This document shows, one piece after another, positions 15,203 to 62,398 of a stretch of DNA of 63,223 nt (positions are counted from its first letter, which is position 1; the number at the start of each line of letters is the position of its first letter). Source of the DNA: Candidatus Parcubacteria bacterium (GTDB taxonomy: Bacteria > Patescibacteriota > Minisyncoccia > Phycocordibacterales > JAKAEA01); contig JAIFWI010000006.1 of NCBI GenBank assembly GCA_019661945.1, forward strand, positions 1 to 63,223, in the 5' to 3' direction. The translations under genes and the position numbers were made by a program. The notes below the pieces were generated by a model. It ran no database searches and was not told the DNA's origin. It saw only the letters and a program-made list of their open reading frames with translations.

Positions 15203-15227
15203 AGGGGCATTCTACCATACATGGAAG

Positions 15228-15254
15228 GCCCCCCACGCGTTAGGCGTAGGGGGC
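15228..15254 (-). terminator. GC-rich hairpin downstream of the high-GC lipoprotein ORF
   Basis: Arms gccccccacgc / gcgtagggggc (11 bp, one mismatch) with a 5-nt loop. No clean U-tract follows, so terminator function is uncertain. Confidence 0.4.
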
Positions 15255-15271
15255 ACAATAGGTTGGAACAA

Positions 15272-15658
15272 TCACGGGTTCGGGCCGACAGATGGCATCA
15301 TGCCCCGGACCAGCTTGTTTTGGTACGGTGTCTGCATGAGCCCGAGCCCGGTCTGGCGCCTACTCGTCGAGTATGACCTGCTTTTGGCCAGCTGCGGTAC
15401 GGGCTGACGGTACGACCCAGCGTAGTCAGGGTACCGGTCATATGCCGGCAGTGGCCGCTCCTCGTAGCTTGAACGGTAGTAGCGCCTCCGGCGATACTGC
15501 GGCGGGTACGGATTGTCCGACCATCGGTAGAGGCTGCGCCGATCGGGGTCAAACCGCGGCGGACGGTCTTGGTAGTACGACGGATGCGGACAATAGCAGC
15601 CCGCCTGAACAAAGGCCAGAACGAGAAGTATGGGCACGAGACAAAACTTGGCGAACAT
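15272..15658 (-). CDS. Small R/Y/P-rich lipoprotein, compositionally foreign (high GC)
   Basis: The internal start gives MFAKFCLVPILLVLAFVQAGC with a lipobox-like AGC. RBS AGGAG lies 7 nt upstream. 36/60 G+C at 15421-15480, against flanks below 40%. Confidence 0.6.
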   Translation of the reverse strand: MFAKFCLVPILLVLAFVQAGCYCPHPSYYQDRPPRFDPDRRSLYRWSDNPYPPQYRRRRYYRSSYEERPLPAYDRYPDYAGSYRQPVPQLAKSRSYSTSRRQTGLGLMQTPYQNKLVRGMMPSVGPNP

Positions 15659-15702
15659 AGGGCATCTCCTACTCAAGAGTTTGTCGATCTTTTCCGGATC
15701 TA

Positions 15703-15731
15703 AATATATCATGCTTGTACACAAAAGTCAA
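15703..15731 (-). promoter_or_regulatory. Sigma70-like promoter for the high-GC lipoprotein ORF
   Basis: The reverse strand has TTGACT (15726-15731), a 17-nt spacer and TATATT (15703-15708). Confidence 0.45.
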
Positions 15732-15775
15732 TGGTCTGTTCCAGCTACAACATAAACCTGATACAATAACGGTAC

Positions 15776-17455
15776 ATGGTAGTCTTTAATGAAGAAAAAC
15801 AAGACGAAAAAGTTGAGGCCTTACATAAGGAAGAAGAAGAAAATCTAGCCCGGACACTCTCAAAAAAATACAACGTCAGTTATATTGACTTAACAACAGC
15901 TGCCATCAACAGCGATGGGTTGCGCTCAATAACTGAAGCTGAAGCTCGAGAAGCAAATCTGGCCGTCTTCGATATTGTTAATAAAAAACTTAAAGTTGCT
16001 GTCCTTGCTCCCAACAATGAGAAAACTATTAAGGCTCTCACCATTCTCAAAGATAAAGGCTACATTCCGACGGTGTATATGACATCGATTGAGAGCCTCA
16101 AAAAAGTTTGGGCCCGCTACAAAGATTTGTCATTTTCATTTGAAACCAGAAGCGGCGCTCTCGATGTCTCTAATGAAGAAATTACGGCATTTCTCAAGGA
16201 AGTTCATAGCTTAGAAGATATTAAGAAACTCATTGAAGTAATTCTCGTTCAAAAGAAGGGCTACAAAACTTCGCGCTTGCTCGAAATTGCTATTGCCGGA
16301 GCATTAGCCCTCAATGCTTCCGACGTCCACCTCGAGCCTCAGGAAAAAGATGTCCTGATGCGCTTTCGACTTGATGGAGTGTTAACCGAAATCGCTACAT
16401 TTGATAAAGAGACGTATAATCTTCTACTTTCGCGTATTAAACTTCTCTCTGGCATGAAATTAAATGTGAAGGGTGCACAGGACGGACGCTTCAGTATTGT
16501 GCTTGAATCTATGGAGATTGAAATCCGATCCTCTGCCCTGCCAAGTGCCTATGATGAATCTATCGTCATGCGTATTTTAAATCCCGATGCAATTTCTGTG
16601 CCGCTCGAAAGCATGGGTATTCATCCAAAACTATTAGATATATTGCTCCGGGAAATTAAAAAACCCGAAGGCATGATTTTAACAACTGGGCCAACGGGCT
16701 CTGGTAAGACTACAACGCTTTATGCATTTCTGAAAAAAGTATATTCAACGGAAACAAAAATTATTACCATTGAAAATCCAATTGAATATCACTTAAAAGG
16801 TATCGTTCAAACGCAGGTTAATGAAGATAAGCAATATACATTTCTTGAAGGATTGCGCTCAGCACTTCGACAAGATCCAGACATTATCATGGTTGGTGAA
16901 ATTCGTGACACAGAAACCGCTGAAACAGCTATCAACTCGGCTCTGACCGGTCACTTGGTATTCTCAACGCTTCACACCAATAATGCAGCAGGTACATTCC
17001 CTCGCCTCATTGATCTTGGTATTAATCCAAAAATTTTAACATCGGCCGTATCAGTATCGATGGCCCAGCGTTTGGTACGACAATTATGTCCGCATTGTCG
17101 AAATGAAATAGTTCTTGAAGGACACACCAAAGAGTTAGTGCACAAAATTCTTAACAGTATTAAAAATAAAGATGAGTACATTGATCATATGCCGACAAAA
17201 ATCTCTGAACCTAAGGGCTGTGATAAATGTAACTTTACTGGTTATAAAGGTCGCATTGGTATATTCGAAGCAATCTTACGAAGTGAAAGAATAGAAAAAG
17301 TTGTCCGAGAAAGCCCAAGTGACTATGAAATATGGAAAGCCGCGGAAGATCAAAATATTTTAAATATGCGTCAGGATGGCATTATCAAAGTTTTGAATAG
17401 TGTCACTTCCCTTTCTGAACTTGAGCGTGTGATTGATTTGGAAGCTGAGAGGTAA
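15776..17455 (+). CDS. pilB: Type IV pilus assembly ATPase PilB (GspE family)
   Basis: 559 aa. Walker A GPTGSGKTTTLYA, the Asp box, Walker B IIMVGEIRD, and a tetracysteine motif CPHC..CDKC. Confidence 0.9.
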   Translation: MVVFNEEKQDEKVEALHKEEEENLARTLSKKYNVSYIDLTTAAINSDGLRSITEAEAREANLAVFDIVNKKLKVAVLAPNNEKTIKALTILKDKGYIPTVYMTSIESLKKVWARYKDLSFSFETRSGALDVSNEEITAFLKEVHSLEDIKKLIEVILVQKKGYKTSRLLEIAIAGALALNASDVHLEPQEKDVLMRFRLDGVLTEIATFDKETYNLLLSRIKLLSGMKLNVKGAQDGRFSIVLESMEIEIRSSALPSAYDESIVMRILNPDAISVPLESMGIHPKLLDILLREIKKPEGMILTTGPTGSGKTTTLYAFLKKVYSTETKIITIENPIEYHLKGIVQTQVNEDKQYTFLEGLRSALRQDPDIIMVGEIRDTETAETAINSALTGHLVFSTLHTNNAAGTFPRLIDLGINPKILTSAVSVSMAQRLVRQLCPHCRNEIVLEGHTKELVHKILNSIKNKDEYIDHMPTKISEPKGCDKCNFTGYKGRIGIFEAILRSERIEKVVRESPSDYEIWKAAEDQNILNMRQDGIIKVLNSVTSLSELERVIDLEAER

Positions 17456-17560
17456 AAGCAATATAAAACAAAAGTCGGCCCTGTTGAAGTTGCCCTGTTT
17501 CAGAAAAGGCGTAGTATGAGCGACAGGCCGCCTTCGAAAACTTCGGCGAGCCAAAGAAAA

Positions 17561-17728
17561 ATCCACTACATAATTCTCTAGACAAGACTTTTAATATAAA
17601 AATTAAAAGCTAAACGTTTCCCTAAGGATAACCACAGTAACGTTTACCGAGGTAAAGAACCATAGTGTCCTCGAAAAAACGCTATGAAGCCTGGAAGGGC
17701 CTGTTGTCTAGAGAATTATTGAGTGGAT
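17561..17728. repeat. 168-bp unit bounded by 25-nt imperfect inverted repeats (MITE-like or long-stem RNA)
   Basis: atccactacataattctctagacaa (17561-17585) versus ttgtctagagaattattgagtggat (17704-17728), with 23/25 complementary. Lies in a 389-bp non-coding gap. Confidence 0.5.
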
Positions 17729-17844
17729 TCTCTTGCTGTTAAAAGCACTAGTATCTTATCACATATATTTTTATATGTCAATCTGAAGCATTGATCGCTG
17801 CTTCGATATGTGGCCTCATTTCGTCTCTGAAATTATGATAGAAT

Positions 17845-18855
17845 ATGACCATGGAAGAGACACCTATACCAGAAGAAGGAGTGTTTTTGGACTCAACCCT
17901 GCGGCCGGACCGTTGGGATGATTACATTGGCCAGAAAACTATTAAGGATAATCTTCATATACTCCTAACCGCTGCTCAAGAACGCAAAACTGTGCCTGAG
18001 CACATTCTCTTTTATGGACCTCCTGGACTTGGAAAAACGACCCTGGCCCATCTCATAGCCAAGGAAATGAATACTCAGATGAAAGTGACCTCGGGTCCGG
18101 CTATAGAAAAAGTTGGAGACTTGGCTTCGGTCCTGACAAACCTTTCTCCCGGCGATATTCTTTTTATAGATGAAATTCACCGTTTAAATAAGGCTATTGA
18201 AGAAGTGCTCTATCCAGCTATGGAATCGGGCAAACTTGATATCATTATCGGCAAAGGCCCATCGGCAAGAACGATTCAACTCGATCTACCACCATTTACA
18301 TTAATTGCAGCTACAACACGTATTGCTCTTCTCTCCTCGCCGCTTCGCTCACGATTTTCTGGAGGAGTATTCCGTTTGGAATTTTATTCTCATGATGAAA
18401 TAGAAGAAATTGTCCGCCGATCTGCAAAGATTTTAGGAATAACGTTATCAAAAAAAGCAGCTGAGGAAATTGCTAAGCGCTCACGCTTCACTCCGCGTAC
18501 CGCAAATTATTTTTTGAAACGTGTCCGTGATTATGCTCAGGTTCATAAGAAAGAATTGGATCACGCAGCTGTACACGAAGCCTTAGAGATGCTCGGTGTT
18601 GATCATAAAGGCTTAACTCAATCAGACCGGACAATTTTGGAAACTATTATTCAAAAATATAATGGTGGGCCGGTAGGATTGAATACCATTGCTGCTTCCC
18701 TTTCCGAAGAACAAGCCACCATTGAAGAATTCAATGAACCCTATCTTATTCAAATGGGACTGATTGAACGCACACCGCGTGGCCGAACTGCTACGACTGA
18801 TGCCTACTCACACTTAGGTATGAATCCACCGGAGGAGCAGAATAAACTTTTATAA
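17845..18855 (+). CDS. ruvB: Holliday junction DNA helicase RuvB
   Basis: 336 aa. Walker A GPPGLGKTTLA, Walker B LFIDEIHRL and a sensor region. This is the typical RuvB layout. Confidence 0.95.
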   Translation: MTMEETPIPEEGVFLDSTLRPDRWDDYIGQKTIKDNLHILLTAAQERKTVPEHILFYGPPGLGKTTLAHLIAKEMNTQMKVTSGPAIEKVGDLASVLTNLSPGDILFIDEIHRLNKAIEEVLYPAMESGKLDIIIGKGPSARTIQLDLPPFTLIAATTRIALLSSPLRSRFSGGVFRLEFYSHDEIEEIVRRSAKILGITLSKKAAEEIAKRSRFTPRTANYFLKRVRDYAQVHKKELDHAAVHEALEMLGVDHKGLTQSDRTILETIIQKYNGGPVGLNTIAASLSEEQATIEEFNEPYLIQMGLIERTPRGRTATTDAYSHLGMNPPEEQNKLL

Positions 18856-18863
18856 AAAACAGC

Positions 18864-18888
18864 GGGCACCCCTTTTGAAGGGGTGCCC
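18864..18888. terminator. Bidirectional intrinsic terminator between ruvB and the high-GC ORF
   Basis: gggcacccc ttttgaa ggggtgccc, a perfect 9-bp stem with A/T runs on both sides. Confidence 0.7.
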
Positions 18889-18948
18889 AGGTACGCACTT
18901 GGCGTAAGCGTTGGAACTCTTGGTGAATGAACATGGGCCGCGGGGAGA

Positions 18949-19326
18949 TCAGGCGGGGACGAGATGCTCGCACTCGACACGGGTCTTGGCGTCGATGGTG
19001 ACGTTCAGCTCGCCGTTCGAGTGGATGAGTGCGCCGCGGAGGGTGTAGAAACCCCGCGGCAGCCCCTCGAGCTGTTCGGCGCCGGCGATGGTGGCGGGAC
19101 AATCCGGGATGGGCCCGGTACCGTACTCGGCGACCTGTCGACCCTGGGGAATCTCCGAATTGCAGAACCGGACGTCGGGGCCGTCGGCCGATGGCACGAT
19201 CTGGACCCGACCGATGTCGACACGGCTCTTCTCCCCGTGTTGGACGCCGGCCTCCTGGGCGGCGTAGTGAAGGGCTTCGGGCTGTTCAGAAGTACGCAAT
19301 TCGCGACGTGTGGGCGTGGAGCTCAT
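18949..19326 (-). CDS. Hypothetical protein, compositionally foreign (high GC)
   Basis: 125-aa ORF with RBS AAAGGA upstream of the ATG. 43/60 G+C at 19081-19140. No motif recognised. A mirror ORF on the + strand is judged to be a GC artefact. Confidence 0.5.
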   Translation of the reverse strand: MSSTPTRRELRTSEQPEALHYAAQEAGVQHGEKSRVDIGRVQIVPSADGPDVRFCNSEIPQGRQVAEYGTGPIPDCPATIAGAEQLEGLPRGFYTLRGALIHSNGELNVTIDAKTRVECEHLVPA

Positions 19327-19415
19327 GAGCAGATCCTTTCTCCAAGAGCGTTACCTTACCAAAGATTATACCTCTACCATAAAATTGTAAAGCATTAAGA
19401 TATATCCAAAGAGAA

Positions 19416-19439
19416 AGGGCGACACCGGAGTGTCGCCCT
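19416..19439. terminator. Intrinsic terminator hairpin downstream of the RTX-like ORF
   Basis: agggcgacac cgga gtgtcgccct, a perfect 10-bp stem flanked by T/A runs on both sides. Confidence 0.65.
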
Positions 19440-19489
19440 TCTTTTTTTACATAAAACAGATGTACAGATTACAGATGGGCCGATGTCGA

Positions 19490-20464
19490 TCAGCCCTTGG
19501 TCGGGGGCGGCAGCGTCGGCTCCGACCGCTTGGTCAGGATGTCGACGCTGGTGATGACGATGTTGACGAGGTCGGAGTCCTGGTTGTACCAGAGCTCGTT
19601 CTCGCCATCGCCGCCGTCGATCGTGCCGCGGGGGGTCAGGGGGCGCTGGCCGTCGTAGGGCCGACGGATCTCGAAGAGGTCGTAGTCCTCGCCGCCGACG
19701 AGGGTGTCGGTGCCAGCGCTGAGGTAGAAGTGGTTGTAGCCGTTTCCGCCCCGGACGATGTCGTCACCATCCTCGCCGCCCATGACGTCGCCGCCGTCGC
19801 CACCCTCGATGAGATCGTTGCCGGTCCCGCCGAAGATGAAGTCGTTGCCGGAGGCGCCGTAGAGCTTGTCGTTCCCGGAGCCGCCGTAGAGGTTTGCGTC
19901 GCCGGCGTCGTAGTCCGCGGGTTCGACCGCCCGAAGGATGTCGTTGCCGCTGCCACCGTCGGCGTAGGACCAGACGTCGGGTTCGACGTACTCGCCCCGC
20001 GGGATGTAGACCTGCGGGGCGTCCATGTAGATGGTGTCGCTGCCCGAGCCGCCGTTGACGGACACAGACATCGAACCCTGGACGCTCCGCGGGTCGGTGA
20101 TGAGCACCGCCCCCGCCACCTTCTTGAAGGTGATGGTGTCGTTGCCGCCCTGCCCGGTGATGTAGACCGAGTTGTAGCTCCCGGTCAGGCGCGTGTTGTC
20201 CACCAGCACTTTGTTCACCTCGCGCTTCAGCGCGAGCTGGGGGCCCTTGCGGCCCATGCTCAGGGTGAGCGTGATCTTCTCGGCCGCGGACGTGCCGACG
20301 ATCGAGAGATTGGTCCAGAGCTTGTGGTCGTCCATGACCTGGACGTTGGTGTCGATGCTCAAGGGCGCCGGCGGTGCCGCTGCCATGAGCTGCCTCGACT
20401 CGAGGCCCTCGATGAGGGCGCGCTGGATACAGGCGGTACGACGGGAAAAGATGCTACGCAGCAT
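19490..20464 (-). CDS. Secreted RTX/hemolysin-type calcium-binding repeat protein, compositionally foreign (high GC)
   Basis: 324 aa. Tandem GGxGxD nonapeptides (GGSGNDKLYGASGNDFIFGGTGNDLIEGGDGGDVMGGEDGDD). The N-terminal IEGLESRQLMAA leader is of the LExRxLL type common in planctomycete secreted proteins. 41/60 G+C at 19501-19560. Confidence 0.75.
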   Translation of the reverse strand: MLRSIFSRRTACIQRALIEGLESRQLMAAAPPAPLSIDTNVQVMDDHKLWTNLSIVGTSAAEKITLTLSMGRKGPQLALKREVNKVLVDNTRLTGSYNSVYITGQGGNDTITFKKVAGAVLITDPRSVQGSMSVSVNGGSGSDTIYMDAPQVYIPRGEYVEPDVWSYADGGSGNDILRAVEPADYDAGDANLYGGSGNDKLYGASGNDFIFGGTGNDLIEGGDGGDVMGGEDGDDIVRGGNGYNHFYLSAGTDTLVGGEDYDLFEIRRPYDGQRPLTPRGTIDGGDGENELWYNQDSDLVNIVITSVDILTKRSEPTLPPPTKG

Positions 20465-20564
20465 GGGATGCTCCTTCTCTGTATGGCTACATAGGCGTAG
20501 CCGAGCCAGATTCAGTTCTAAGGCAACCTTCCAAGGCAGCCCTATACCAAATCTTCTGATGGGT

Positions 20565-20593
20565 ATATTATCATATTACTTTACTTTTGTCAA
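20565..20593 (-). promoter_or_regulatory. Sigma70-like promoter upstream of the RTX-like ORF
   Basis: The reverse strand has TTGACA (20588-20593), a 17-nt spacer and TAATAT (20565-20570). RBS GAAGGAG precedes the ATG at 20464. Confidence 0.5.
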
Positions 20594-20815
20594 TATATGT
20601 TTAGTGGTAATCCTGCTTGTGGTTTTTTATGAGTTCAGCTTGTTCAATAGCCTCCTTGGGAGTGTATTCACCTGTTCGCAGGCGCCGACGAATATCATGA
20701 AGTGCCTCTACTTACCCATCATTTGCACCCATGGTCTGGACAACATTTATAGTGTTTAAAACAAAGTTCTCCGGATCTCCAACATTTAGTCCTCCTTCAA
20801 AAGTATTGAGTTTCA

Positions 20816-21193
20816 TTAGATGAGACCAGTGAAATAACTACGGGTAAAAAATGCTATAACAAATCCAATGGCTACAGCCAGTACAAATATTCCAAATGTT
20901 TTAAGACTTTTTATGCGAGAGAGTTCTCGGACAACCAGTCCGCCAATCGGAGCGAGGATAACATATGGCAAGGCCGTAGTGGCAAATCCAAAGCCGCTAA
21001 ATTGTTTGCCGTAGCTGGTGAGGCCCATGAGATCACCGGCAAGTTTTGTGCCGTAATCAATGACATCTTTCGGACCAAAGAAAACCATCAATCCGATGAC
21101 AAAACCAAATGCCAGATTAGTAATAATATTTAAAAGATTTGTGCCCTGATTCATTCCTGGCATTCCGCCCATACCATTTTGAAAAGGATTCAT
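20816..21193 (-). CDS. Hypothetical multi-pass membrane protein
   Basis: 125 aa. G/M/N-rich N-terminus followed by 3-4 hydrophobic helices. Confidence 0.55.
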   Translation of the reverse strand: MNPFQNGMGGMPGMNQGTNLLNIITNLAFGFVIGLMVFFGPKDVIDYGTKLAGDLMGLTSYGKQFSGFGFATTALPYVILAPIGGLVVRELSRIKSLKTFGIFVLAVAIGFVIAFFTRSYFTGLI

Positions 21194-21234
21194 ATGCGCT
21201 CAATAATACACCTGATTAATACTTATGGACAGGC

Positions 21235-21648
21235 TTAGAACTTGTTTCTTCTCTTCTGTCCTCTTTTGATCTGGAAATGATAGTAGAAAAATATAATTAC
21301 TGAAAAACAGAATGTTAAAAGATATACCAAATTCATTGAAAAAGAAATTGCATACCGTAGTAAATTCATTCCCACAAAGAAAACAATCGTAAATCCAATA
21401 ATTTTGTTGAGCGGGTATAATAATCCAATTGGAGATGAATCTAAGGCCCTCTTTGCATTCCGTATCTGTATATATCTTCCAACTAAAATTGCAGAAAAAA
21501 ATATAATGTATATTAATAAGAGTGGGGCCCATGAAAACCTTCCCCACACATCAGTAAGTGTGGCAGAAATAACCAACATGATTACTAATGCAGCGCCGAG
21601 AATAGATACTAACAAAAGAAAAATAATCCTTAACAATGATTTGATCAC
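21235..21648 (-). CDS. Hypothetical multi-pass membrane protein
   Basis: 137 aa with four hydrophobic segments. The overlapping 115-aa ORF (21200..21547) is judged spurious. Confidence 0.55.
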   Translation of the reverse strand: MIKSLLRIIFLLLVSILGAALVIMLVISATLTDVWGRFSWAPLLLIYIIFFSAILVGRYIQIRNAKRALDSSPIGLLYPLNKIIGFTIVFFVGMNLLRYAISFSMNLVYLLTFCFSVIIFFYYHFQIKRGQKRRNKF

Positions 21649-21690
21649 GTTAATACAATTATACTATACCTCAACTATATAGGTAACTAT

Positions 21691-21720
21691 GGTTGGGTCG
21701 GCAGGTGTTAGGGGTCAGGT
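21691..21720 (-). repeat. Array element E1 (divergent copy)
   Basis: The + strand ggttgggtcggcaggtgttaggggtcaggt shares the TTGGGTCGGCAGGTG half with E2-E6. Confidence 0.5.
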
Positions 21721-21741
21721 ATGCTCTATAGAATAAATATC

Positions 21742-22080
21742 TTAAACTTTTGGATGTTTTGCTAAATCATCTAAATAGGCATTGTTTGCCTCAAGTTTAG
21801 ATCGGGCAGATTCTACTTCTGTTGTTTTATTGTGAAGTTCTTCTTTCAGTGCAATAGTCTTTTTCTGAATACGTGAAATGAGAAAGCTTCTGCGTATTGC
21901 ACTTGGAATTGAAACCAGTACCCCAATCAAAATTCCGGTGACTACTGCCGCTATAAGTATTATCGCCAACGATCCGTCAATCTGCCAAGCCAAAAATGTC
22001 ACCGTTATAACCGTGATATTTTGTAAAGCAAAGATTACTGCAAACCCTCCAAGCACCAAACCAATTAAAAGAAATATCAT
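21742..22080 (-). CDS. LapA-domain (DUF1049-like) membrane protein with coiled-coil tail
   Basis: 112 aa. GGFAVIFALQNITVITVTFLAWQIDGSLAIILIAAVVTGILIG matches the two-helix LapA-domain pattern. Confidence 0.55.
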   Translation of the reverse strand: MIFLLIGLVLGGFAVIFALQNITVITVTFLAWQIDGSLAIILIAAVVTGILIGVLVSIPSAIRRSFLISRIQKKTIALKEELHNKTTEVESARSKLEANNAYLDDLAKHPKV

Positions 22081-22120
22081 AACTCATTGTATCACATAGT
22101 AGTTCGAATTCCTTTAGATA

Positions 22121-22154
22121 TGTCGGCAGGTAGATAGTGTTAGAACCTATTTTG
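22121..22154 (-). repeat. Array element E2
   Basis: The + strand is tgtcggcaggtagatagtgttagaacctattttg. It begins directly after the stop of the upstream cassette gene. Confidence 0.6.
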
Positions 22155-23063
22155 CTATTTTCTGATTTTAAAAGACTTACTAAATGCCTGAACAATTGGT
22201 GTTCTATCCTCACTTAGTCCATCCGCTTCATCAATACGAATTTGGTATTGGTCAAATAATTTGCTTGAATCTAAATTAAAATTACTTGTACCGTCACGGA
22301 GTGGTATTTCTCTTGGGTCAAGATACCATGAGAAACGTCCATCACTTGCCTTAACTGATTTTCCACCATTCAACACTATTAGGTTGGTGTAACCATTAGA
22401 ATCTGTGCCCACAATATATATTTGGACCTCCTTCATCCCCTTTGATTGCCACTCGATACTATTCGCTGAATCTACCCGCCATACTTGCCCGGCTTGAGGT
22501 GAAGTAATAGAAATAGAAATTAAATCAGATCTATACCTCAAGGTAAAAACAGCATCGGAGTTACTACAAATATATTGTCCTGTATTTTGTATATCGCCAC
22601 AAACATAAGCAATGTATTTAATATCGGCCATTAATAAAGGACTGTTTTTTACAATATCAGAATGAGTTAAGATGACAGCTCCCCTGTCAACACCGCCATC
22701 CGAAAGAGATTTTGAGATATACGTTGGGGCTTCTTCAAAATTATATCTTTGTACAAAATCATATTGCTTTACAACGATTTGTGGATTTACGAGTGTAACG
22801 TTTGAAAACCATTCAAATTGCATGTGAAAGAAACCATCATCATTTATCGTATAGCTTTCTTCGCCATCTGGTAAACTGACTTTTATTGATGGCAAGGTAG
22901 TAGCAGTCGGAGTATTTGTAGCATTTTTATTAACTGCCTCAGTCTGCAATAATTGATCTGATTTTGTCTTTGCGCCCAGGTAATAGATACTTCCACCTAT
23001 AGTTAGAACTGCAATTAGTAAAAAAACAAGCAGAGGAGTAAAACCTCTTTGTGAGTTTTTCAT
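22155..23063 (-). CDS. Hypothetical secreted/anchored protein
   Basis: Start moved to MKNSQRGFTPLLVFLLIAVLTIGG. This is a pilin-like GFxP(L/I)L anchor without the Glu5 of true pilins. The rest looks beta-rich. Confidence 0.6.
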   Translation of the reverse strand: MKNSQRGFTPLLVFLLIAVLTIGGSIYYLGAKTKSDQLLQTEAVNKNATNTPTATTLPSIKVSLPDGEESYTINDDGFFHMQFEWFSNVTLVNPQIVVKQYDFVQRYNFEEAPTYISKSLSDGGVDRGAVILTHSDIVKNSPLLMADIKYIAYVCGDIQNTGQYICSNSDAVFTLRYRSDLISISITSPQAGQVWRVDSANSIEWQSKGMKEVQIYIVGTDSNGYTNLIVLNGGKSVKASDGRFSWYLDPREIPLRDGTSNFNLDSSKLFDQYQIRIDEADGLSEDRTPIVQAFSKSFKIRK

Positions 23064-23102
23064 ATTGAGATAATTATACCCCATAATTAAATGAGTATAT
23101 AG

Positions 23103-23144
23103 ATGGGCTTGGTTGGGAGCTGGACGGGCTTAGAACCTGTTTTG
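23103..23144 (-). repeat. Array element E3
   Basis: The + strand is atgggcttggttgggagctggacgggcttagaacctgttttg, nearly identical to E6. Confidence 0.7.
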
Positions 23145-23147
23145 TAT

Positions 23148-23577
23148 AAAAAAATAGGCCCCGCTCGTTATTACAAGCGGGGCACCTGGTCAAGCCAGGA
23201 TTTTCGAAAGAACCTTCAGAAAGAGCTGCCGAACTTGTGAGGCGAAGATCCAAGACCTCACCAAGTTCAAAGGGTTGTCCAGAGGGACTGCGTGTCCCTT
23301 GTCGTGTCTATGATTTATTCGGAAGCTAACCCTTCCTAATACCGCCGATAAATCACAGAAACCTAGGCCTGATTGAGAAATAGACAGGCTTTTGCAGATA
23401 ATCAACCAAACTCTGCAGAAGCAATGGATAACCACGATCTTCGCACTTACTTATATCCTCTTCACTGATTAATCATCCATTACAATTCACCAGTGACACA
23501 AATGAGGGGCGAAGAGTCAGACTAGAACCGAACCGGTGCCAGGACCCGCTGACCGAGGGATACCTGCACTGAGCTGT
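23148..23577 (-). ncRNA. Candidate ~430-nt structured non-coding RNA of unknown class
   Basis: Bounded by a consensus promoter and an intrinsic terminator (GCCCCGCUUG UAAUAA CGAGCGGGGC followed by a 7-U run at 23148-23154). The only ORF (81 aa, 23190..23435) is Cys/Leu/Ser-rich and looks like junk. Many local and long-range complementary segments are visible by eye. Confidence 0.6.
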
Positions 23578-23582
23578 GATAG

Positions 23583-23610
23583 ATTATAGCACAGTCATAA
23601 TATTTGTCAA
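23583..23610 (-). promoter_or_regulatory. Consensus sigma70 promoter driving the candidate ncRNA
   Basis: The reverse strand has TTGACA (23605-23610), a 16-nt spacer and TATAAT (23583-23588). Confidence 0.65.
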
Positions 23611-23658
23611 CCTTTTTAGTGTAGTATTAAGAAATACGGCTCAATAGAGCCTTCCATT

Positions 23659-23696
23659 CGCTGGGTCGGGAGATGAACAGAATTAGAACCTACCAG
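23659..23696 (-). repeat. Array element E4
   Basis: The + strand is cgctgggtcgggagatgaacagaattagaacctaccagg. Confidence 0.6.
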
Positions 23697-23746
23697 GTAT
23701 AAATAAAAAAACTTTCGCCTGTTGAGCAAAAGTCTTTGTTTCGTGG

Positions 23747-24280
23747 TTACCTCCGAATCCTACCGTGGTTGAGCATGAAGTCAGGTGGAAAACGGAAAAT
23801 GTCGAGGTCCAACTTCGTTGTTATGCGCTTCCCCTGTTCGTCCACCGTAACTTCAGTCTCCTTGACAACGGCATCGATGATCACACGCCGCATCACTCCA
23901 AAAAATGATTCGATGACCCCATTGATCGTCTCTGATTCTGGCTCTGTATCACTTTCAATAAAGCCCGTAACAAACTCATAATCAGAAAAGGGTTCTTCCT
24001 GACCATCAATGTGATACCAGATCGTGTGCACGATCTCAGATTCAGCACTAGAACCACCTGTAGTGATCTTCCTGCGGCTTGAAGTTGCATTGAAGTCTAG
24101 TGTCACAAAGGGTCGGAAGGCAATGTATCCCACAGCTGCCACACGATCATGGATGTCGAACACGAGCTCCTCTACCCTGCCCTTCTTCTTATTGAGAGAT
24201 TCGAGCAGATGATGCAGCCTAACCGCTCTAGCAAGCCAAGGATCCTTACGGACAAGAGCAATGAACTTGTTCCAGTTCAT
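23747..24280 (-). CDS. Orphan cytosolic protein (177 aa from ATG 24280; 197 aa if the duplicated ATG at 24340 is used)
   Basis: Clean ORF with RBS GAAAGGAA 4 nt upstream of the ATG, and its own promoter (TTGACT..TATAAA at about 24408-24435). A hairpin plus T-run follows at about 23705-23740. No TM segments or known motifs. Confidence 0.65.
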   Translation of the reverse strand: MNWNKFIALVRKDPWLARAVRLHHLLESLNKKKGRVEELVFDIHDRVAAVGYIAFRPFVTLDFNATSSRRKITTGGSSAESEIVHTIWYHIDGQEEPFSDYEFVTGFIESDTEPESETINGVIESFFGVMRRVIIDAVVKETEVTVDEQGKRITTKLDLDIFRFPPDFMLNHGRIRR

Positions 24281-24390
24281 ATCATTCCTTTCTACCCTAT
24301 AGGTAGATGCGGGAATTGGATCTATCAGAGTCCAGTTCATATCATTCCTTTCTACCCTATAGGTAGATGCGGGAATTGGATCTATCAGAG
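24271..24390. repeat. Perfect 2 x 60-bp tandem duplication covering the 5' UTR, RBS and start codon
   Basis: 24271-24330 and 24331-24390 are identical (tccagttcatatcattcctttctaccctataggtagatgcgggaattggatctatcagag). Confidence 0.95.
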
Positions 24391-24443
24391 TCTGACTCTG
24401 ATTTCTGAAGTGTTTATACCATTATCTGCACAATAGTCAATGT

Positions 24444-24480
24444 CTTGGTCGGCACGTGGACACCGTTAGAACCTGTTTTT
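24444..24480 (-). repeat. Array element E5
   Basis: The + strand is cttggtcggcacgtggacaccgttagaacctgttttt. Confidence 0.65.
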
Positions 24481-24496
24481 AAGATTCCAAGCAGAT

Positions 24497-25045
24497 TTAT
24501 TCTGAAACAAATGAAGACTTTCTTAGTATTAGCTGTACCTCCTTTTGATTGGCATTAACAAATTGAATTTGCCAAATTATATCTGGTCTATAGTAATATC
24601 TACCAATTTTAACTAAGGTTGGTTCTGGGTCTACAGCTTCAGGGAATCGATTAGTTATCTCGCCTCTACCTATAAGTGTTTGTTCACAATGAGCATTTCC
24701 GCAATATCCAGCTTTATAAGCCATAATAAGTTTTCTACAATTGGACTGATTAGTAATTTTCCACCCAAGATTCAATCCCTCAACCGCAAAATTTCCATCT
24801 TTGTCTGTAATTGTTTTGATATTATCACCGTATTGAACCTTTCTAATATCCCCTCCAAAACCTGGCGTTGTACATGAATATTCAATTTCAACTGTTACAT
24901 CTTGTATTCCATTACCACTAATATCAACTATACGACCAGATGTTTCTGAAAAAGAAATATATTTTGGAATACCTAAAAAGACATAGAGACTAATACCTGC
25001 AACTATTACAATAATAATACTAATTATTAAAGAAAATACTTTCAT
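24497..25045 (-). CDS. Membrane-anchored protein with a carboxypeptidase-regulatory-like beta-sandwich
   Basis: Start moved to MKVFSLIISIIIVIV. GRIVDISGNGIQDVTVEI...TDKDGNFAVEGL resembles the CarboxypepD_reg fold signature. Confidence 0.55.
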   Translation of the reverse strand: MKVFSLIISIIIVIVAGISLYVFLGIPKYISFSETSGRIVDISGNGIQDVTVEIEYSCTTPGFGGDIRKVQYGDNIKTITDKDGNFAVEGLNLGWKITNQSNCRKLIMAYKAGYCGNAHCEQTLIGRGEITNRFPEAVDPEPTLVKIGRYYYRPDIIWQIQFVNANQKEVQLILRKSSFVSE

Positions 25046-25068
25046 ATTGCATCCATTGTACCACAAAG

Positions 25069-25108
25069 GATGGGCTTGGGTCGGGAGCTGGACAGGCTTA
25101 GAACCTAT
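25069..25108 (-). repeat. Array element E6
   Basis: The + strand is gatgggcttgggtcgggagctggacaggcttagaacctat. The reverse strand forms the T-arm-like hairpin AUAGG UUCUAAG CCUGU. Confidence 0.7.
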
Positions 25109-25112
25109 ATAT

Positions 25113-26273
25113 CTATTCAGTAACAGTGAAATCTACCGCCTTGCTCTCAACCGCATGTCTGATTAGGTATATCTTATATTTTCCTGGCACTACCGTAAAA
25201 TTAGATTTGCAATACCAATCGATATTGTATATACAGAGACTCGATTTTATATTTACCTTGGCAAGCGAAGCTGTACTTCTTGGTTCAGGAAATAACATAC
25301 CCTTTTCACCCTTAACATTTTCAATGATAATAATGAAATCACTTACATCTCCACCGAAATTCTTACCCCTAAGCTCTATGTATGTACCAATCTTTCCGTG
25401 ATCTGGAGAAACACTGTTTATGACAGGATCATTAGCTTTACCAGGGAAAGTCTGAGGATATTCATCAAGCGCATTCAAATTAAATGTCTTCTCGGTAGTT
25501 TCTGGCTTTGGAGTGGTCAGTTTTAAAGTAACCTCATTTTCATTTTTCCAACCAATGACATCAACCCCTCCGCCATATTGGAATGTAAGTGGAATAAACT
25601 TTAATGTTTTAAAATCATAAACCCAACCAAAATCATGAGCGGCATTTCGTACAGAGAAAGCAACTTTTGAACCATTAGGTGAAAACTGTACATCTTTAAA
25701 TTCTGCATCTCTACCTGCTTCAAATACAGTATCTTTTTGAACAACCATCGCTGGAATGTTCTGAGTCGATATTACTTTATTATCAATTGATATTTGTTTT
25801 TTATTCCAAGAGACTCCGGTATGCTTAAACGTTGAGAAAATTTTATTAATTATTATTGTATCCTCTGAAGTGCGCGCTACCATATCAAATCCAATATTGT
25901 AAGAAGGATCATATGCTGACTTTAAAAAAATAAACATATCTTCTTTCCATTCAGTATTTTCTTTATTATGTGGATTAGTATTTATACTAATACCGTTATA
26001 TGGGGAATCCGACTCTTTAACTGGGAAATTAATGTCTTCTATAGTTACATACGATTCATCACTATATACAGCTCTCCAATTCGGTGGAGCCTTAATACTG
26101 TAACCATACTTATCATTTCTGTATATCTTCCAACTTGCAGTTTCATCAAGTGCTTCCTGTGGTGCATTGATCTGACTTTGTAAAAAATAGTACCCGCCAC
26201 CGACAAGTACAACTACTAATAAAATAAGCAGGATGGGAGCAAAACCCTTTTTAGCATTTTTCATATTATTCAT
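25113..26273 (-). CDS. Hypothetical secreted/anchored protein with a C-terminal IPT/TIG-like domain
   Basis: 386 aa. KKGFAPILLILLVVVLVGGG anchor, and a C-terminal PVINSVSPDHGKIGTYIELRGKNFGG. Confidence 0.6.
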   Translation of the reverse strand: MNNMKNAKKGFAPILLILLVVVLVGGGYYFLQSQINAPQEALDETASWKIYRNDKYGYSIKAPPNWRAVYSDESYVTIEDINFPVKESDSPYNGISINTNPHNKENTEWKEDMFIFLKSAYDPSYNIGFDMVARTSEDTIIINKIFSTFKHTGVSWNKKQISIDNKVISTQNIPAMVVQKDTVFEAGRDAEFKDVQFSPNGSKVAFSVRNAAHDFGWVYDFKTLKFIPLTFQYGGGVDVIGWKNENEVTLKLTTPKPETTEKTFNLNALDEYPQTFPGKANDPVINSVSPDHGKIGTYIELRGKNFGGDVSDFIIIIENVKGEKGMLFPEPRSTASLAKVNIKSSLCIYNIDWYCKSNFTVVPGKYKIYLIRHAVESKAVDFTVTE

Positions 26274-26424
26274 ATTGTCTCACTAAAATCTAAACACAGC
26301 CATTCGGCTGTGCACAGGTTCGAGTCCCGCAATGGGGTGCCTACTGGGATTCGAACCGATGGAAAGATTAGACAAAAAGGATACTGTTGGTAGGATAAAG
26401 GCAACTCATTTAATATATACGAGC

Positions 26425-32694: not shown

Positions 32695-32696
32695 AG

Positions 32697-32770
32697 TAGG
32701 AGGGGTGGGATTTGAACGCCACAACCTCTGGCTAATGTAACCAGTGCTCCGCCAATTGAGCTACCCTCCC
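32697..32770 (-). tRNA. Atypical tRNA-like gene, anticodon CAU (Met/Ile2 type)
   Basis: The reverse strand reads GGGAGGG UA GCUC AAUUGGCG GAGC A CUGGU UACAUUA GCCAG AGGUU GUGG(C)G UUCAAAU CCCAC CCCUCCU A. It forms a cloverleaf, but position 33 is A, position 37 is U, the T-stem has a bulged C and the first pair is G1-U72. Confidence 0.55.
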
Positions 32771-41629: not shown

Positions 41630-41633
41630 GAAA

Positions 41634-44896: not shown

Positions 44897-44905
44897 ACAA
44901 TATTA

Positions 44906-45541: not shown

Positions 45542-45545
45542 ATGA

Positions 45546-45977: not shown

Positions 45978-45982
45978 AACCT

Positions 45983-46753: not shown

Positions 46754-46758
46754 ATATT

Positions 46759-49443: not shown

Positions 49444-49444
49444 A

Positions 49445-58691: not shown

Positions 58692-58721
58692 ATTTCCTTA
58701 ATTTAAATATTGAAAATGAAA

Positions 58722-58746
58722 AAGCCGCAAGAAAACCTTGCGGCTT
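58722..58746. terminator. Bidirectional intrinsic terminator
   Basis: aagccgcaag aaaac cttgcggctt, a perfect 10-bp stem with T runs on both strands. Confidence 0.7.
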
Positions 58747-58776
58747 TTCTCGCGGCTCTGTTTGCCGACGAAAGAC

Positions 58777-59100
58777 TTACAGCACGTCGACCGACTCGAG
58801 GCCGTCGCGCAGGCGCTGCTTGAACCAGTCTTGGTCGAACTTCTCCGGGACGATCACGGTGAAGAACCTGTTTTGTGGGTTCTCCCAGAGCCCGGACAAG
58901 ATCACGGCATTGATGGTCGCCTGGTCTGCCTGGTTTTCCAGACGCAAGTTGCTGCCGAGCATCCCCTTGAAGTACAGCACGGCGGTCCGGGTCCCCCCGT
59001 CGAGCGTCTGGTTTTGCCCTTGTCCCAGGTTGAACGCTAGACGGAGCTTTGTCCCAGCTCGGACGTCGCGCAGGATTTCACTGAGCTTTGCCCTGTCCAT
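58777..59100 (-). CDS. Hypothetical protein, compositionally foreign (high GC)
   Basis: 107 aa from MDRAKLSEILRDV, with RBS AAAGGA 6 nt upstream. 33/60 G+C at 58861-58920. No motif recognised. Confidence 0.5.
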   Translation of the reverse strand: MDRAKLSEILRDVRAGTKLRLAFNLGQGQNQTLDGGTRTAVLYFKGMLGSNLRLENQADQATINAVILSGLWENPQNRFFTVIVPEKFDQDWFKQRLRDGLESVDVL

Positions 59101-59172: not shown

Positions 59173-59200
59173 ATAATAGCATAAAATTTAAATAAGTCAA
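59173..59200 (-). promoter_or_regulatory. Sigma70-like promoter for the high-GC ORF
   Basis: The reverse strand has TTGACT (59195-59200), a 16-nt spacer and TATTAT (59173-59178). It starts 6 nt past the comM stop. Confidence 0.45.
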
Positions 59201-60816: not shown

Positions 60817-61188
60817 TTAGGCATTCATATGCGCCTTGCAGGTTTTGGCGGCGGGATTGGCGCTTAAGCGATCTTCTTCAATTGGTTTGCCGCAGACTTC
60901 GCAGATACCGAACTTGCCTTCTTCCATTTTTTTCAAAGCGGCATCAATTTCCATTAAGCGAGTCTCAAGTTCATTAGTTAGAGCCGTGTTATTTTCATAT
61001 GATTCAATTCGATCGGCAGTTTCATTTGAGTCTGATCCAAGGATATCCATATCTGCAGGCTTACCTTGCCAATCATCAGGGCTTTTCATATTTTTAACTA
61101 CACCAATTTCTCCAAGCTCGCGTACTAAGAGCTCTTTTTCTTCAGTCAGCTTTTTCTTAAGTCCGTCATGGTTTTCGTGATGTGTCAT
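60817..61188 (-). CDS. DksA/TraR family C4-type zinc-finger protein
   Basis: 123 aa. Coiled-coil N-terminus and CEVCGKPIEEDRLSANPAAKTCKAH. Confidence 0.75.
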   Translation of the reverse strand: MTHHENHDGLKKKLTEEKELLVRELGEIGVVKNMKSPDDWQGKPADMDILGSDSNETADRIESYENNTALTNELETRLMEIDAALKKMEEGKFGICEVCGKPIEEDRLSANPAAKTCKAHMNA

Positions 61189-61222
61189 ATGAATATGATA
61201 GCAAGTACAGCTTCTAATGCAA

Positions 61223-62080
61223 TTACTGTACGAATTGAGACGTTGCCAGCCGACCGATTATTTCAGCAAAGGTTTCTTCATTGGTTGTCATGACGATTGT
61301 CTCTTTATCAGTCAGAGCATAATAGAGCACTGGCTGACCAGCTGCATTCTTGGCAATACGGACGTCTTTGTTTCGAATAATTGCGTCGCTAAAGGTGTAT
61401 GTTGAAGTTGGATTTTCAGCAAAGTGCACTGATGAGACAAAAAGAGGCTGGACATCTTCAACCATGGTCTTTTCCCAGGCAATCATGCCCGAAAAAGCAG
61501 TTTCATATGAACTTGTTTTAAAAATAATAAAGGGTTCATTAAATTCTGTACCGGTGTGATAGCCTAAGACATAATCTGGTTGAAGAGCCCGAACAAAGTA
61601 CGAAGGAATGCTACCAAAGGCTCCAGCAATACTTTCAACAGGAATTGGAATCTGAACTGCCGTTGTGGTAGCTAAAATAAATGAAAAACGTACTAACGAT
61701 CCGGGTGCGGTATTAAGAAGAATGGTGCCATCATTGATTGCCTCTTCTAAATACTGGCCAGGAGCAATAGGGATAATCAATTTACCCTCAGTAGCAATGA
61801 TATCAGCTTTAGTGATAGACGGTGGAGCAGTCTGACTCAGTCGGCGTTGAATGCCAAAAATAATAAGCGCGGCCAGGACACAGCCGAAAAGTAAAATGAG
61901 ACTAATCGGTAACAGCCAAATATTTTTTTTAACTTCAATAATCGGTTCAGATTGTTTTTTTTGATTCTGCGATACAGCGATATCGAGCATTGAGAGTTCT
62001 TTTCCTTTCAATGTATCAGCAAGATCACTGCTGTAGGTGTGAATAGGAGGCAGTGGAGACTTCTTTTTTTCATCTTCCAT
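61223..62080 (-). CDS. Hypothetical single-pass membrane protein
   Basis: 285 aa with one TM segment (WLLPISLILLFGCVLAALIIFGI). No known motif. Confidence 0.55.
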   Translation of the reverse strand: MEDEKKKSPLPPIHTYSSDLADTLKGKELSMLDIAVSQNQKKQSEPIIEVKKNIWLLPISLILLFGCVLAALIIFGIQRRLSQTAPPSITKADIIATEGKLIIPIAPGQYLEEAINDGTILLNTAPGSLVRFSFILATTTAVQIPIPVESIAGAFGSIPSYFVRALQPDYVLGYHTGTEFNEPFIIFKTSSYETAFSGMIAWEKTMVEDVQPLFVSSVHFAENPTSTYTFSDAIIRNKDVRIAKNAAGQPVLYYALTDKETIVMTTNEETFAEIIGRLATSQFVQ

Positions 62081-62103
62081 GTCTCTAGTATATCACTCTT
62101 GAG

Positions 62104-62132
62104 TTGACTCATGAAGCAGTCTCATCTACACT
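62104..62132 (+). promoter_or_regulatory. Sigma70-like promoter for the small high-GC ORF
   Basis: TTGACT (62104-62109), a 17-nt spacer and TACACT (62127-62132). Confidence 0.4.
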
Positions 62133-62179
62133 AAAAAAAGCGTCGCACATTTTTGTTTCTTTTTTGCATGGAGGCCCAT

Positions 62180-62347
62180 ATGAAAGCCACTTTGCCGGAC
62201 AGCGATTCTGTTCGCCTGAACTGTGCGGAGTCGACTGAACAGGACCCACACAAGCCTCAGCCGCCCGCCCCACGTCAACCCGAGCAGTCAACGTCGCCGC
62301 GCCAGCTACACGTCAACGACGCCTGGCTCCCGCAAGTCGAGAACTGA
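62180..62347 (+). CDS. Small hypothetical Pro/Gln-rich protein, compositionally foreign (high GC)
   Basis: 55 aa from MKATLPDSDS. RBS GGAGG (62170-62174) lies 5 nt upstream. 40/60 G+C at 62221-62280. Its short length makes coding status uncertain. Confidence 0.4.
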   Translation: MKATLPDSDSVRLNCAESTEQDPHKPQPPAPRQPEQSTSPRQLHVNDAWLPQVEN

Positions 62348-62370
62348 TTCGCCGCCGGACGAAACAAAAA

Positions 62371-62398
62371 AGCCCCGCCTCTCTGAGAGGTCGGGGCT
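62371..62398. terminator. Bidirectional intrinsic terminator
   Basis: agccccg..cggggct stem with A/T runs on both sides. Lies between the small high-GC ORF and the NYN gene. Confidence 0.65.

Follow-up and report, generated by a model that had tools for sequence, protein, structure and literature searches.

Five high-GC genes on a low-GC contig

In the present study, we examined contig JAIFWI010000006.1, referred to here as the window, which is the entire public contig of 63,223 bp and has an overall GC content of 41.6%. Five open reading frames (ORFs) of the window, named A, B1, B2, C and D, stand apart from the native genes in base composition, and each of them is predicted to form a transcription unit with its own signals. 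Judged from its proteins, the organism belongs to the Patescibacteria, or candidate phyla radiation (CPR), for which Minisyncoccota is the valid name; its RuvB is at most 75-76% identical to those of metagenome-assembled genomes (MAGs) labelled Minisyncoccia, Ca. Zambryskibacteria, Nomurabacteria, Ryanbacteria, Kaiserbacteria or 'Saccharibacteria'. The five ORFs and the features around them are as follows.

15227-15255, minus strand: hairpin 3' of A, with no U-tract, followed by the TGGTAGAAT -10 element and the start codon of tsaE (15202)
15272-15658, minus strand: ORF A, 128 aa, GC 0.615, GC3 0.74; putative signal peptide ending in lipobox-like VQAGC, then an R/Y/P-rich low-complexity mature part
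15703-15731, minus strand: predicted promoter of A, TTGACT-17-TATATT with TG before the -10 (consensus scan)
18856-26331, minus strand: island of 7.5 kb, all genes on the minus strand and with no Pfam hit, in which B1 and B2 form the high-GC left end
18863-18889, minus strand: predicted terminator of B1, a 12-bp stem followed by CTGTTTTTTA, -22.9 kcal/mol; its U-tract abuts the ruvB stop (18853-18855)
18949-19326, minus strand: ORF B1, 125 aa, GC 0.664, GC3 0.79
19365-19391, minus strand: promoter-like site of B1, TTTACA-15-TATAAT, less canonical, read from the sequence
19415-19440, no strand assigned: hairpin past the B2 stop and ahead of the B1 promoter, with an A-tract on one side and a T-tract on the other, terminator-like both ways, -26.5 kcal/mol
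19490-20464, minus strand: ORF B2, 324 aa, GC 0.663, GC3 0.92; N-terminal motif IEGLESRQLMAA, beta-rich domain and RTX nonapeptide repeats
20565-20593, minus strand: predicted promoter of B2, TTGACA-17-TAATAT with TG; downstream of it a 5' untranslated region (UTR) of ~100 nt and raised GC
58719-58749, no strand assigned: predicted bidirectional terminator common to C and the convergent M23 peptidase gene
58777-59100, minus strand: ORF C, 107 aa, GC 0.599, GC3 0.82
59173-59200, minus strand: predicted promoter of C, TTGACT-16-TATTAT with TG, beginning 6 nt past the comM stop
62104-62132, plus strand: predicted promoter of D, TTGACT-17-TACACT
62180-62347, plus strand: ORF D, 55 aa, GC 0.619, GC3 0.70; predicted disordered, antisense to the NYN-to-comM gene string, with GGAGG 5 nt before the ATG
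62367-62402, no strand assigned: predicted bidirectional terminator common to D and the convergent NYN gene, an inverted repeat with 11-nt perfect arms

The native ORFs (n=56) have a GC content of 0.404 ± 0.033 (maximum 0.47) and a GC at third codon positions (GC3) of 0.344 ± 0.060 (maximum 0.52). Against this background, the five ORFs, with a GC of 60-66% and a GC3 of 0.70-0.92, are outliers by 5.9-9.6 standard deviations for the two measures and are offset by +0.20 to +0.26 in GC, and no further ORF of the window is an outlier under the same test. Their foreign composition, first noticed in a first-pass annotation of this DNA, is thus borne out. The synonymous codon choice of the inserts is inverted with respect to the host (GAC 89% vs 23%, TAC 91% vs 27%, ATC 94% vs 20%, AAG 86% vs 30%). 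In the frames listed above GC is highest at the third, lower at the first and lowest at the second codon position, and this pattern, together with the RTX match of B2 and the confident fold of C described below, confirmed the reading frames. The codon usage of the inserts fits two very different loci equally, L002 from a Minisyncoccia genome (58% GC; r = 0.87) and L040 from an Actinomycetes genome (r = 0.88), and was dropped as a guide to the donor. Related loci are denoted here by L numbers and protein matches by P numbers.

A consensus scan found TTGAC(A/T)-N16-17-TAnnnT ahead of A, B2, C and D, in most cases extended by TG, in agreement with the TTGAC(A/T) -35 element previously reported for four of the five; B1 has TTTACA, and a loose promoter scan at this ORF gives TTTACA-17-TAATCT. 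The strict pattern was present at 4/5 inserts vs 2/31 native genes whose upstream gap measures 45 nt or more (Fisher p = 0.0012). These promoters had been described as host-type. They are of the sigma-70 type, but as predicted from sequence they are nearer the consensus than typical host promoters. A Shine-Dalgarno site was found in all five ORFs. In addition, a hairpin lies 3' of each of them, as had been claimed, and the energies lie between -23 and -29 kcal/mol (-25 kcal/mol at A, where 15215-15270 was folded, and -28.9 kcal/mol at D, where 62350-62415 was folded), whereas the measured native terminators range from -12 to -23 kcal/mol; some of the five are bidirectional. The hairpins of B1, B2, C and D are followed by a U-tract and that of A by none. 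Similar GC hairpin terminators also occur 3' of native genes, and those adjoining B1, C and D are predicted also to end the convergent resident genes ruvB, M23 and NYN, respectively. The GC change-points lie at 15226/15672, 18859/19350, 19490/20542 (the latter, upstream of B2, at ~20542), ~58750/59172 and 62185/62379.

Short direct repeats at the junctions, for which a search had been proposed, did not exceed chance, and no k-mers of 11 nt or longer were common to the junctions. Pfam scans of nearly all window ORFs of at least 180 aa gave no integrase, transposase or phage gene, the sole recombinase being RuvABC; the reported lack of integrase, insertion-sequence and repeat scars was upheld by these scans and by the junction comparison. 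PADLOC, which covers defence systems, gave no match among the five ORFs. The best candidates for target-site duplications were a 10-nt match (9/10) flanking A, a 16-nt match (13/16) flanking the coding sequence of C and a 13-nt match (11/13) flanking D, and they were rejected because, by our own estimate, ~1-2 such matches per region are expected by chance. Inserts shaped like an mRNA (retro-transferred) were also considered and set aside: in C the stretch of raised GC extends as far as the -10 element and in B2 to within ~20 nt of it, but in A, B1 and D it does not. An engineered or cloned sequence was considered because of BamHI and NcoI sites close to where C starts and an NdeI site where D starts; it was rejected since GGATCC, CCATGG and CATATG occur 11, 15 and 25 times in the window and the contig is a public NCBI record.

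Sites and products of the five units

The first-pass annotation had placed every insert between conserved housekeeping genes. This holds for A, C and D, but B1 and B2 have a housekeeping gene (ruvB) on the left only, and on their right lie 5.8 kb of lineage-specific genes. When the same places were compared in related genomes, a check that had been suggested, the sites of C and D were empty, that of A was a slot with other genes or a short gap, and the ruvB/yebC junction was variable.

The divergent tsaE/pilB gap, where A lies, measures 62-185 bp in L001, L003 and L016. In six other genomes (L002, L006, L007, L012, L014 and L015) the gap is occupied by a gene for a small lipoprotein (84-187 aa), which runs on the tsaE strand, and in four further genomes by genes for larger exported proteins. 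The flanks were read for five of the six small genes, those of L015 being left out, and in L002, L006, L007, L012 and L014 the occupant comes with a TTGACw-N17-(TG)TAnnnT promoter of its own and a hairpin terminator, and tsaE has a -10 element separate from these. All six are GC-raised relative to their own genomes, by +0.03 to +0.21. The proteins are without detectable similarity to one another or to A and cannot be aligned, and A is a positional analogue of these genes. One of the five products had been classified as a lipoprotein. The sequence at the putative signal peptide of A is MFAKFCLVPILLVLAFVQAGC, where the residues at -1 (G) and -2 (A) fit a lipobox and the Gln at -3 is atypical; the lipobox rule (PROSITE PS51257) is [LVI][ASTVI][GAS]C. 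As an alternative to lipidation, the protein may be cleaved by signal peptidase I after VQA. No match to A was found in Pfam, NCBIfam or PADLOC.

The string yebC-ruvC-(acidic ORF)-tyrS-PBP comes next to ruvB in related genomes, with either nothing or 1-2 variable ORFs in between, and ruvB and yebC are directly adjacent in L006, L010, L014, L016 and L018. In the window, the island separates ruvB from yebC-ruvC, which lie at 26332-27455. The island genes other than B1 and B2 have a native-like GC of 0.32-0.47, most of the proteins are membrane-anchored or exported (several have N-terminal membrane anchors), and none of the island genes has a homologue in 2.1 Mb of related loci. For B1, a word-seeded search of 5.8 billion clusters, IMG/VR viral contigs, plasmids (PLSDB) and the 2.1 Mb of related loci gave no homologue; the protein is a singleton in NCBI nr, an ORFan. 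Its single-sequence AlphaFold model had a confidence score (pLDDT) of 42 and was unusable.

An RTX assignment made earlier was confirmed, for B2, by Pfam (HemolysinCabind, PF00353; E = 3.6e-17, 62 bits vs a cutoff of 23), and the DNA contains a family of repeats with 27-nt periodicity at 19589-20058. The N-terminus gave a sub-threshold match to Planc_extracel (PF07595, LExRxLL(A/S) motif) of 21.6 bits, E = 1.6e-4, against a gathering threshold of 25.5. The same sub-threshold motif and architecture occur in P0126 and P0045. The best homologues of B2 are 30-50% identical, chiefly over the repeats, and a few matches run from the N-terminus with a like architecture (P0126, P0045, which is from a Planctomycetes MAG, and P0114); another match, P0123, is named Planctomycetaceae by its source. 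B2 resembles other RTX calcium-binding proteins in its GGxGxD nonapeptide repeats (PF00353) and differs from them in having no adjacent type I secretion genes, as the Pfam scans showed no ABC, membrane fusion protein or TolC gene next to it, and no recognisable catalytic or toxin domain. Going by the sub-threshold match, its N-terminus is more like Planctomycetes extracellular proteins than RTX toxins.

Immediately upstream of the B2 promoter, at 20600-20815 (minus strand), lies an ORF of ~70 codons broken by an in-frame TAA (…TMGANDG*VEALHDIRRRL…), which ends at the -35 element of that promoter and is probably a pseudogene. Further inside the island, at 23150-23610 (minus strand), there is a perfect-consensus promoter (TTGACA-16-TATAAT with TG) with a strong terminator ~420 nt downstream and no convincing ORF. 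The minimum free energy z-score of this element is -2.9, Rfam gave only a sub-threshold match (rpsB sRNA, E = 0.033), and no homologue was present in the fetched related loci. It may be a non-coding RNA (ncRNA) or a decayed gene.

The convergent comM/M23 gap, which is 514 bp in the window, measures 17-150 bp in related genomes and typically holds one bidirectional hairpin. The gap is short in L084 (the closest relative, ComM 71%), L087, L088, L103, L108, L117, L119, L126, L115, L099 and L111, and a comparable single hairpin is found in L087, L088, L103, L108, L117 and L126. The hairpin at 58719-58749 is probably the resident terminator of the site. In contrast, the promoter of C is not ancestral to the site, since it starts 6 nt past the comM stop and the empty sites hold just a terminator hairpin. 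Two relatives have other genes in this gap: in L093 a GC-raised pilin-like ORF with a TTGACT-17-TATAGT promoter and a hairpin, and in L089 a different small ORF.

A word-seeded search with C returned nothing, whereas exhaustive phmmer found 37 relatives at E <=1e-3, 10 of them at <=1e-10, of ~100-125 aa and at best 41% identical. The family aligns over its full length with the motifs KLRLTFK ... SG.W..D.NRT ... FD..WF..RL..GLE; in the alignment (A1) F88 is invariant and G16, F23, W72, R78 and F93 are at least 90% conserved. The AlphaFold model from the family alignment has a pLDDT of 97.1 and a pTM of 0.88, and on this model C is a real folded protein of a small alpha/beta type. No match to C was found in Pfam, PHROGs, PDB sequences, PDB folds or BFVD folds; a function could not be derived from the structure, as no PDB or BFVD match reached E <0.1 or a TM score >0.46. 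Among the family members, 1/26 matched a PHROG, at E = 0.003, which is not meaningful. We examined seven other low- or mid-GC contexts of C relatives (L081/L082, which are one gene, L083, L164, L165, L166, L167 and L168). The gene is GC-raised in all seven (0.44-0.59 vs flanks of 0.33-0.49, the left flank of L168 being 0.57), and the neighbours are unrelated from contig to contig. Most of the relatives have a TTGACw promoter and those of L167 and L168 a terminator hairpin; an alignment of the upstream regions (A2) contained no conserved 5'UTR or leader beyond the promoter hexamers. The gene content of the low-GC contigs carrying C relatives is compatible with Patescibacteria. In L168 (241-1299) the C-family gene (GC 0.59, GC3 0.82) follows another high-GC ORF (0.59 / 0.76), and beyond a hairpin the GC falls to 36%; in an unrelated sample, two adjoining high-GC genes thus border on low-GC DNA.

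The gap between NYN and the next gene is 337 bp in the window, where it contains D, vs 0-90 bp in L114, L115 and L119. D has no match in Pfam, NCBIfam or PADLOC, and its predicted coding status (55 aa) rests on the Shine-Dalgarno site, the promoter, the terminator and the GC3.

The frequency of such ORFs was compared between the window and two syntenic locus sets by counting ORFs with a GC at least 0.12 and a GC3 at least 0.20 above the locus median. Outliers per 100 kb were 7.9 in the window, 0.87 in the ruvB loci and 1.20 in the comM loci of the relatives (~8x), and with the rate of the relatives, 5 or more outliers in 63 kb would have a Poisson probability of 7e-4. In independent assemblies, the outlier ORFs of L014, L115, L122, L095 and L016 also have promoter-like sites and terminator hairpins; hence, the pattern is not peculiar to this assembly, though this genome is unusually rich in it. 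Among the comM loci, L113 has a comM gene (6001-7596) that is itself a GC outlier (0.49, GC3 0.51 vs the locus median 0.37 / 0.30), which suggests an allelic replacement by recombination with a higher-GC relative.

Origin of the units

A horizontal origin as such is well supported, because the sites of C and D are empty in related genomes. As to how the units arrived, we lean with modest confidence towards five independent, single-gene acquisitions similar to the morons of phages, from more than one source, into operon-boundary slots that are reused by the lineage. Each unit would consist of a single high-GC ORF behind a Shine-Dalgarno site and a sigma-70 promoter close to consensus (TTGACw and TAnnnT 16-17 nt apart, often with TGn), and of a terminator, which in B1, C and D would be common with the convergent resident gene. 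All of them are situated at operon ends, where insertion would disrupt nothing: between the divergent genes tsaE and pilB, at the junction of ruvB and yebC, between the convergent genes comM and M23, and between NYN and the next gene. The same places in related genomes carry other unrelated small genes or nothing. Plural sources may be assumed: C would come from a family circulating among low-GC contigs, B2 would have the N-terminal architecture of secreted Planctomycetes RTX proteins, and A sits in what would be an old slot holding a small lipoprotein gene in relatives. The DNA may have entered by natural transformation, which we infer from PilB, the pilins, ComM, RuvABC and the ATPase similar to that of type IV secretion systems (T4SS) encoded in the window, together with the competence proposal of PMC12455944. 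Fixation would then have taken place by recombination without a site-specific recombinase, either by homologous exchange via the conserved flanks with a higher-GC Patescibacteria donor or by illegitimate recombination. The incoming piece was probably a promoter, UTR and ORF set beside a resident terminator, since the hairpins also serve resident genes and that of C is like the hairpin of the empty sites. From their sequences, A is predicted to be exported or lipid-anchored, B2 to be a Ca-binding beta-roll and C a small alpha/beta protein, while B1 and D are of no recognised type; the products probably serve envelope or host-interaction functions.

Several points weigh against this explanation. 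A donor was found for 0/5 ORFs, the large protein databases having been searched with B2, B1 and C. The empty-site calls rest on genomes that are just 57-76% identical in RuvB or ComM. The flanking housekeeping proteins have no relatives at >=90% identity among ~15 billion proteins (all are singletons), and it follows that the databases hold no sister genome; the window proteins present in NCBI nr, including B1, B2 and C, are likewise each a singleton cluster. The explanation does not account for the outlier density of the window. The C family is GC-raised everywhere examined and never lies in a uniformly high-GC genome, which is odd for arrival followed by amelioration, and the GC elevation at slot A in six related genomes could reflect a maintained composition and not a recent arrival. 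Finally, the promoters and terminators are predictions made by consensus and energy.

Some of these points would be accommodated if the five were native, fast-evolving accessory genes in vertically inherited slots, with sequences that drift past recognition and a high GC that is actively maintained, for instance by GC-biased gene conversion where slots are prone to recombination or by selection on the mRNA or protein. The occupants of slot A speak for this: in six relatives the place is taken by a gene for a small lipoprotein, on the same strand, with a like promoter grammar and terminator and with a GC raised by +0.03 to +0.21, and the signal peptides of A and the L014 occupant both have LVP...Q-G-C features; the C family is GC-raised in 8/8 contexts. 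However, these occupants have no detectable similarity to one another, the sites of C and D are empty in the nearest relatives, and the neighbours of C-family genes are unrelated in every contig, which indicates that the genes move. A GC3 of 0.74-0.92 vs 0.34 is also far above the effects of bacterial biased gene conversion, which Lassalle et al. in 2015 reportedly found to be of a much smaller size. We regard native descent as unlikely. The first-pass annotation had proposed, among other explanations, a very recent gene flow from a high-GC host into an epibiont. All five would then come from one donor, the host cell, for example a Planctomycete. Common codon preferences of the five (CTC >= CTG; GTC, GCC, ACC and GGC preferred), the Planctomycete-type N-terminal motif of B2 and its full-length-like matches, which include the Planctomycetes proteins P0045 and P0123, speak in its favour, but the motif is sub-threshold (21.6 vs 25.5 bits), the best identity of B2 is 30-50%, B1 has no homologue and the relatives of C lie in low-GC contigs. 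Moreover, the GC3 values are spread over 0.70-0.92, the codon usage fits L002 as well as L040, and promoters with TTGACw and an extended -10 would not be expected for Planctomycete or actinobacterial genes. One donor for all five is therefore rather improbable.

The annotation had also left open a mosaic, chimeric or constructed sequence. As an assembly or binning artefact, this would mean short pieces of high-GC genomes spliced into a CPR contig. This contig is metagenome-assembled, its outlier density is ~8x that of the relatives and its GC shifts occur within tens of bases. On the other hand, an artefact would need all ten junctions to fall between genes, with every flanking gene full-length; every one of the foreign pieces is complete from promoter and Shine-Dalgarno site through the ORF to the terminator, the junctions have no k-mers in common, and the same architecture recurs at the same slots in independent assemblies from other studies and in other contigs with the C family, so an artefact is very unlikely. 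Least credible of all is a dedicated system, whether similar to integrons or new in kind, that would capture promoter-bearing cassettes and insert them at defined sites. It was suggested by the stereotyped architecture, the B1/B2 tandem and the reuse of slots across relatives; nothing in the 63 kb supports it, as there is no integrase or recombinase but RuvABC, no att- or attC-like sequence, no target-site duplication, no conserved junction or hairpin sequence and no common motif at the insertion sites, and the units are dispersed with their own promoters. The argument that ordinary transfer could not give such a pattern is weakened, as the same gaps recurrently hold unrelated, self-promoted small genes in relatives; the outlier density per kb is, however, ~8-fold that of the same regions there. 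We also consider, as a doubtful though not negligible idea, that Patescibacteria share a pool of 'cellular morons' which keep their own GC of ~50-66% whatever the genome and move between operon-boundary slots without a recombinase. If true, these would be a distinct, self-maintaining class of mobile genes and more than un-ameliorated arrivals from high-GC bacteria, as the C family suggests, and the present organism would either have an unusually large number of them or be taking them from its host.

A moron is an independent transcription unit spread by horizontal transfer (PMC3594210). Like phage morons, the present units are single ORFs, each with a predicted promoter and factor-independent terminator, that separate genes found side by side in relatives; their composition is unlike that of their neighbours, and they would spread horizontally without a recombinase of their own. 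Such units in phages and prophages were reportedly described in 2000 by Juhala et al. and by Hendrix et al. The differences are that the carrier here is a cellular chromosome, with the units among housekeeping genes (tsaE/pilB, ruvB, comM/M23, NYN), and that the GC offset is extreme. Of four moron features, three are found here (a predicted independent unit, with a weak promoter in B1 and a hairpin without U-tract in A; a distinct composition; a place between neighbours adjacent in relatives), and the fourth, a phage carrier, is not. Pfam gave no capsid, terminase, portal or integrase gene in the window, and a phage or plasmid origin was rejected, as IMG/VR contains no relatives of A, B1 or C, and PLSDB plasmids none of B1 or C. 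By analogy, the units would work like morons but are not morons.

The units share with integron cassettes the small single ORF of foreign composition, the hairpin-forming element at the 3' end and, in B1/B2, a tandem arrangement. In contrast to cassettes, each has its own promoter-like site and none is part of an array read from Pc; they occupy four loci dispersed over 47 kb. Regarding intI and attI, no integrase or recombinase domain was present in any scanned ORF, and the hairpins, viewed as attC candidates, are simple 11-14 bp terminator stems with no common sequence, although no attC covariance model was run. A classical genomic island would show tRNA-adjacent insertion, an integrase and repeats beyond chance, none of which is the case here, and the two tRNAs of the window (7504-7577 and 32696-32770) are distant from all five units. 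The units are neither integron cassettes nor a classical genomic island.

Bacterial ORFans, discussed together with recently acquired genes reportedly by Daubin and Ochman in 2004, are similar to the present ORFs in being short, lineage-restricted, with few or no homologues, and located in variable regions. Typical ORFans are AT-richer than their own genome, whereas the five units here are much GC-richer than theirs, and the pattern runs counter to that rule.

Single-gene horizontal transfer into Patescibacteria is already documented. In groundwater Patescibacteria, the accessible part of PMC12455944 describes hundreds of individually transferred genes besides islands, mostly transferred within the phylum, with competence as a proposed route. 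The phylum, the commonness of single-gene transfers and the proposal of competence agree with our case. That part of the report makes no mention of promoter-to-terminator units, of slots at operon boundaries that are used repeatedly, or of ORFans that reach a GC3 of 0.92 and are un-ameliorated, and the method it describes requires a donor in the data set, which the five ORFs here do not have.

Patescibacteria have tiny genomes and live on other cells, and the way in which they gain surface and interaction genes is poorly understood. The present contig would show genome growth in a clean form, by one-gene units added into a few reusable operon-end gaps without mobile-element machinery, several of them with products that are predicted to leave the cytoplasm. 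If donors are found, the genes could point to the host lineage, for which the Planctomycete-like B2 is one lead. In addition, C represents a new conserved protein family having a confident predicted fold without a known structural match.

Other features of the contig

Pfam scans of the window gave an ordinary CPR housekeeping set, which is listed here in groups, without coordinates except where they appear elsewhere in the text.

ruvA, murein ligase, amidase, fpg, PolA, holA-like, tsaE, pilB and ruvB
yebC, ruvC, tyrS and PBP; dnaN and dnaA; yidC, rnpA and a VirB4/TraG-like ATPase
ksgA, uvrD, M23/LysM peptidase, comM, DksA-like protein and NYN protein

Two pilin-like genes with an N-terminal methylation motif (6772-7347 and 7686-8207) adjoin an ORF of 1120 aa without Pfam match (8213-11575), and together (6772-11575) they may be parts of a type IV pilus or competence apparatus. 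The genes dnaN (35965-37062) and dnaA (37318-38772) coincide with the minimum of the cumulative GC skew (~35 kb), and AT-rich gaps lie near them (37001-37400, 31.5% GC); the region 35000-38800 is likely the replication origin region. A cluster on the minus strand at 39982-51223 includes the VirB4/TraG-like P-loop ATPase (43085-44896) and large proteins that either have no Pfam match or carry Ig-like and discoidin domains (46759-49443 and 49445-51223). This cluster resembles the type IV secretion system of Patescibacteria as it appears in the available part of PMC12102498.

Between pilB and ruvB, at 17553-17781 (minus strand), a strong promoter (TTGACA-17-TAAGAT) has no ORF behind it. The ~180 nt downstream of this promoter are conserved at the same place in L001, L005, L006, L007, L012 and L014. 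The consensus RNA fold of this stretch has 58 pairs, 37 of them with compensatory double changes, and a search of Rfam gave no match to the structure at an E of 1 or better. The element at 17553-17781 is a candidate for a new structured ncRNA of this Patescibacteria lineage.

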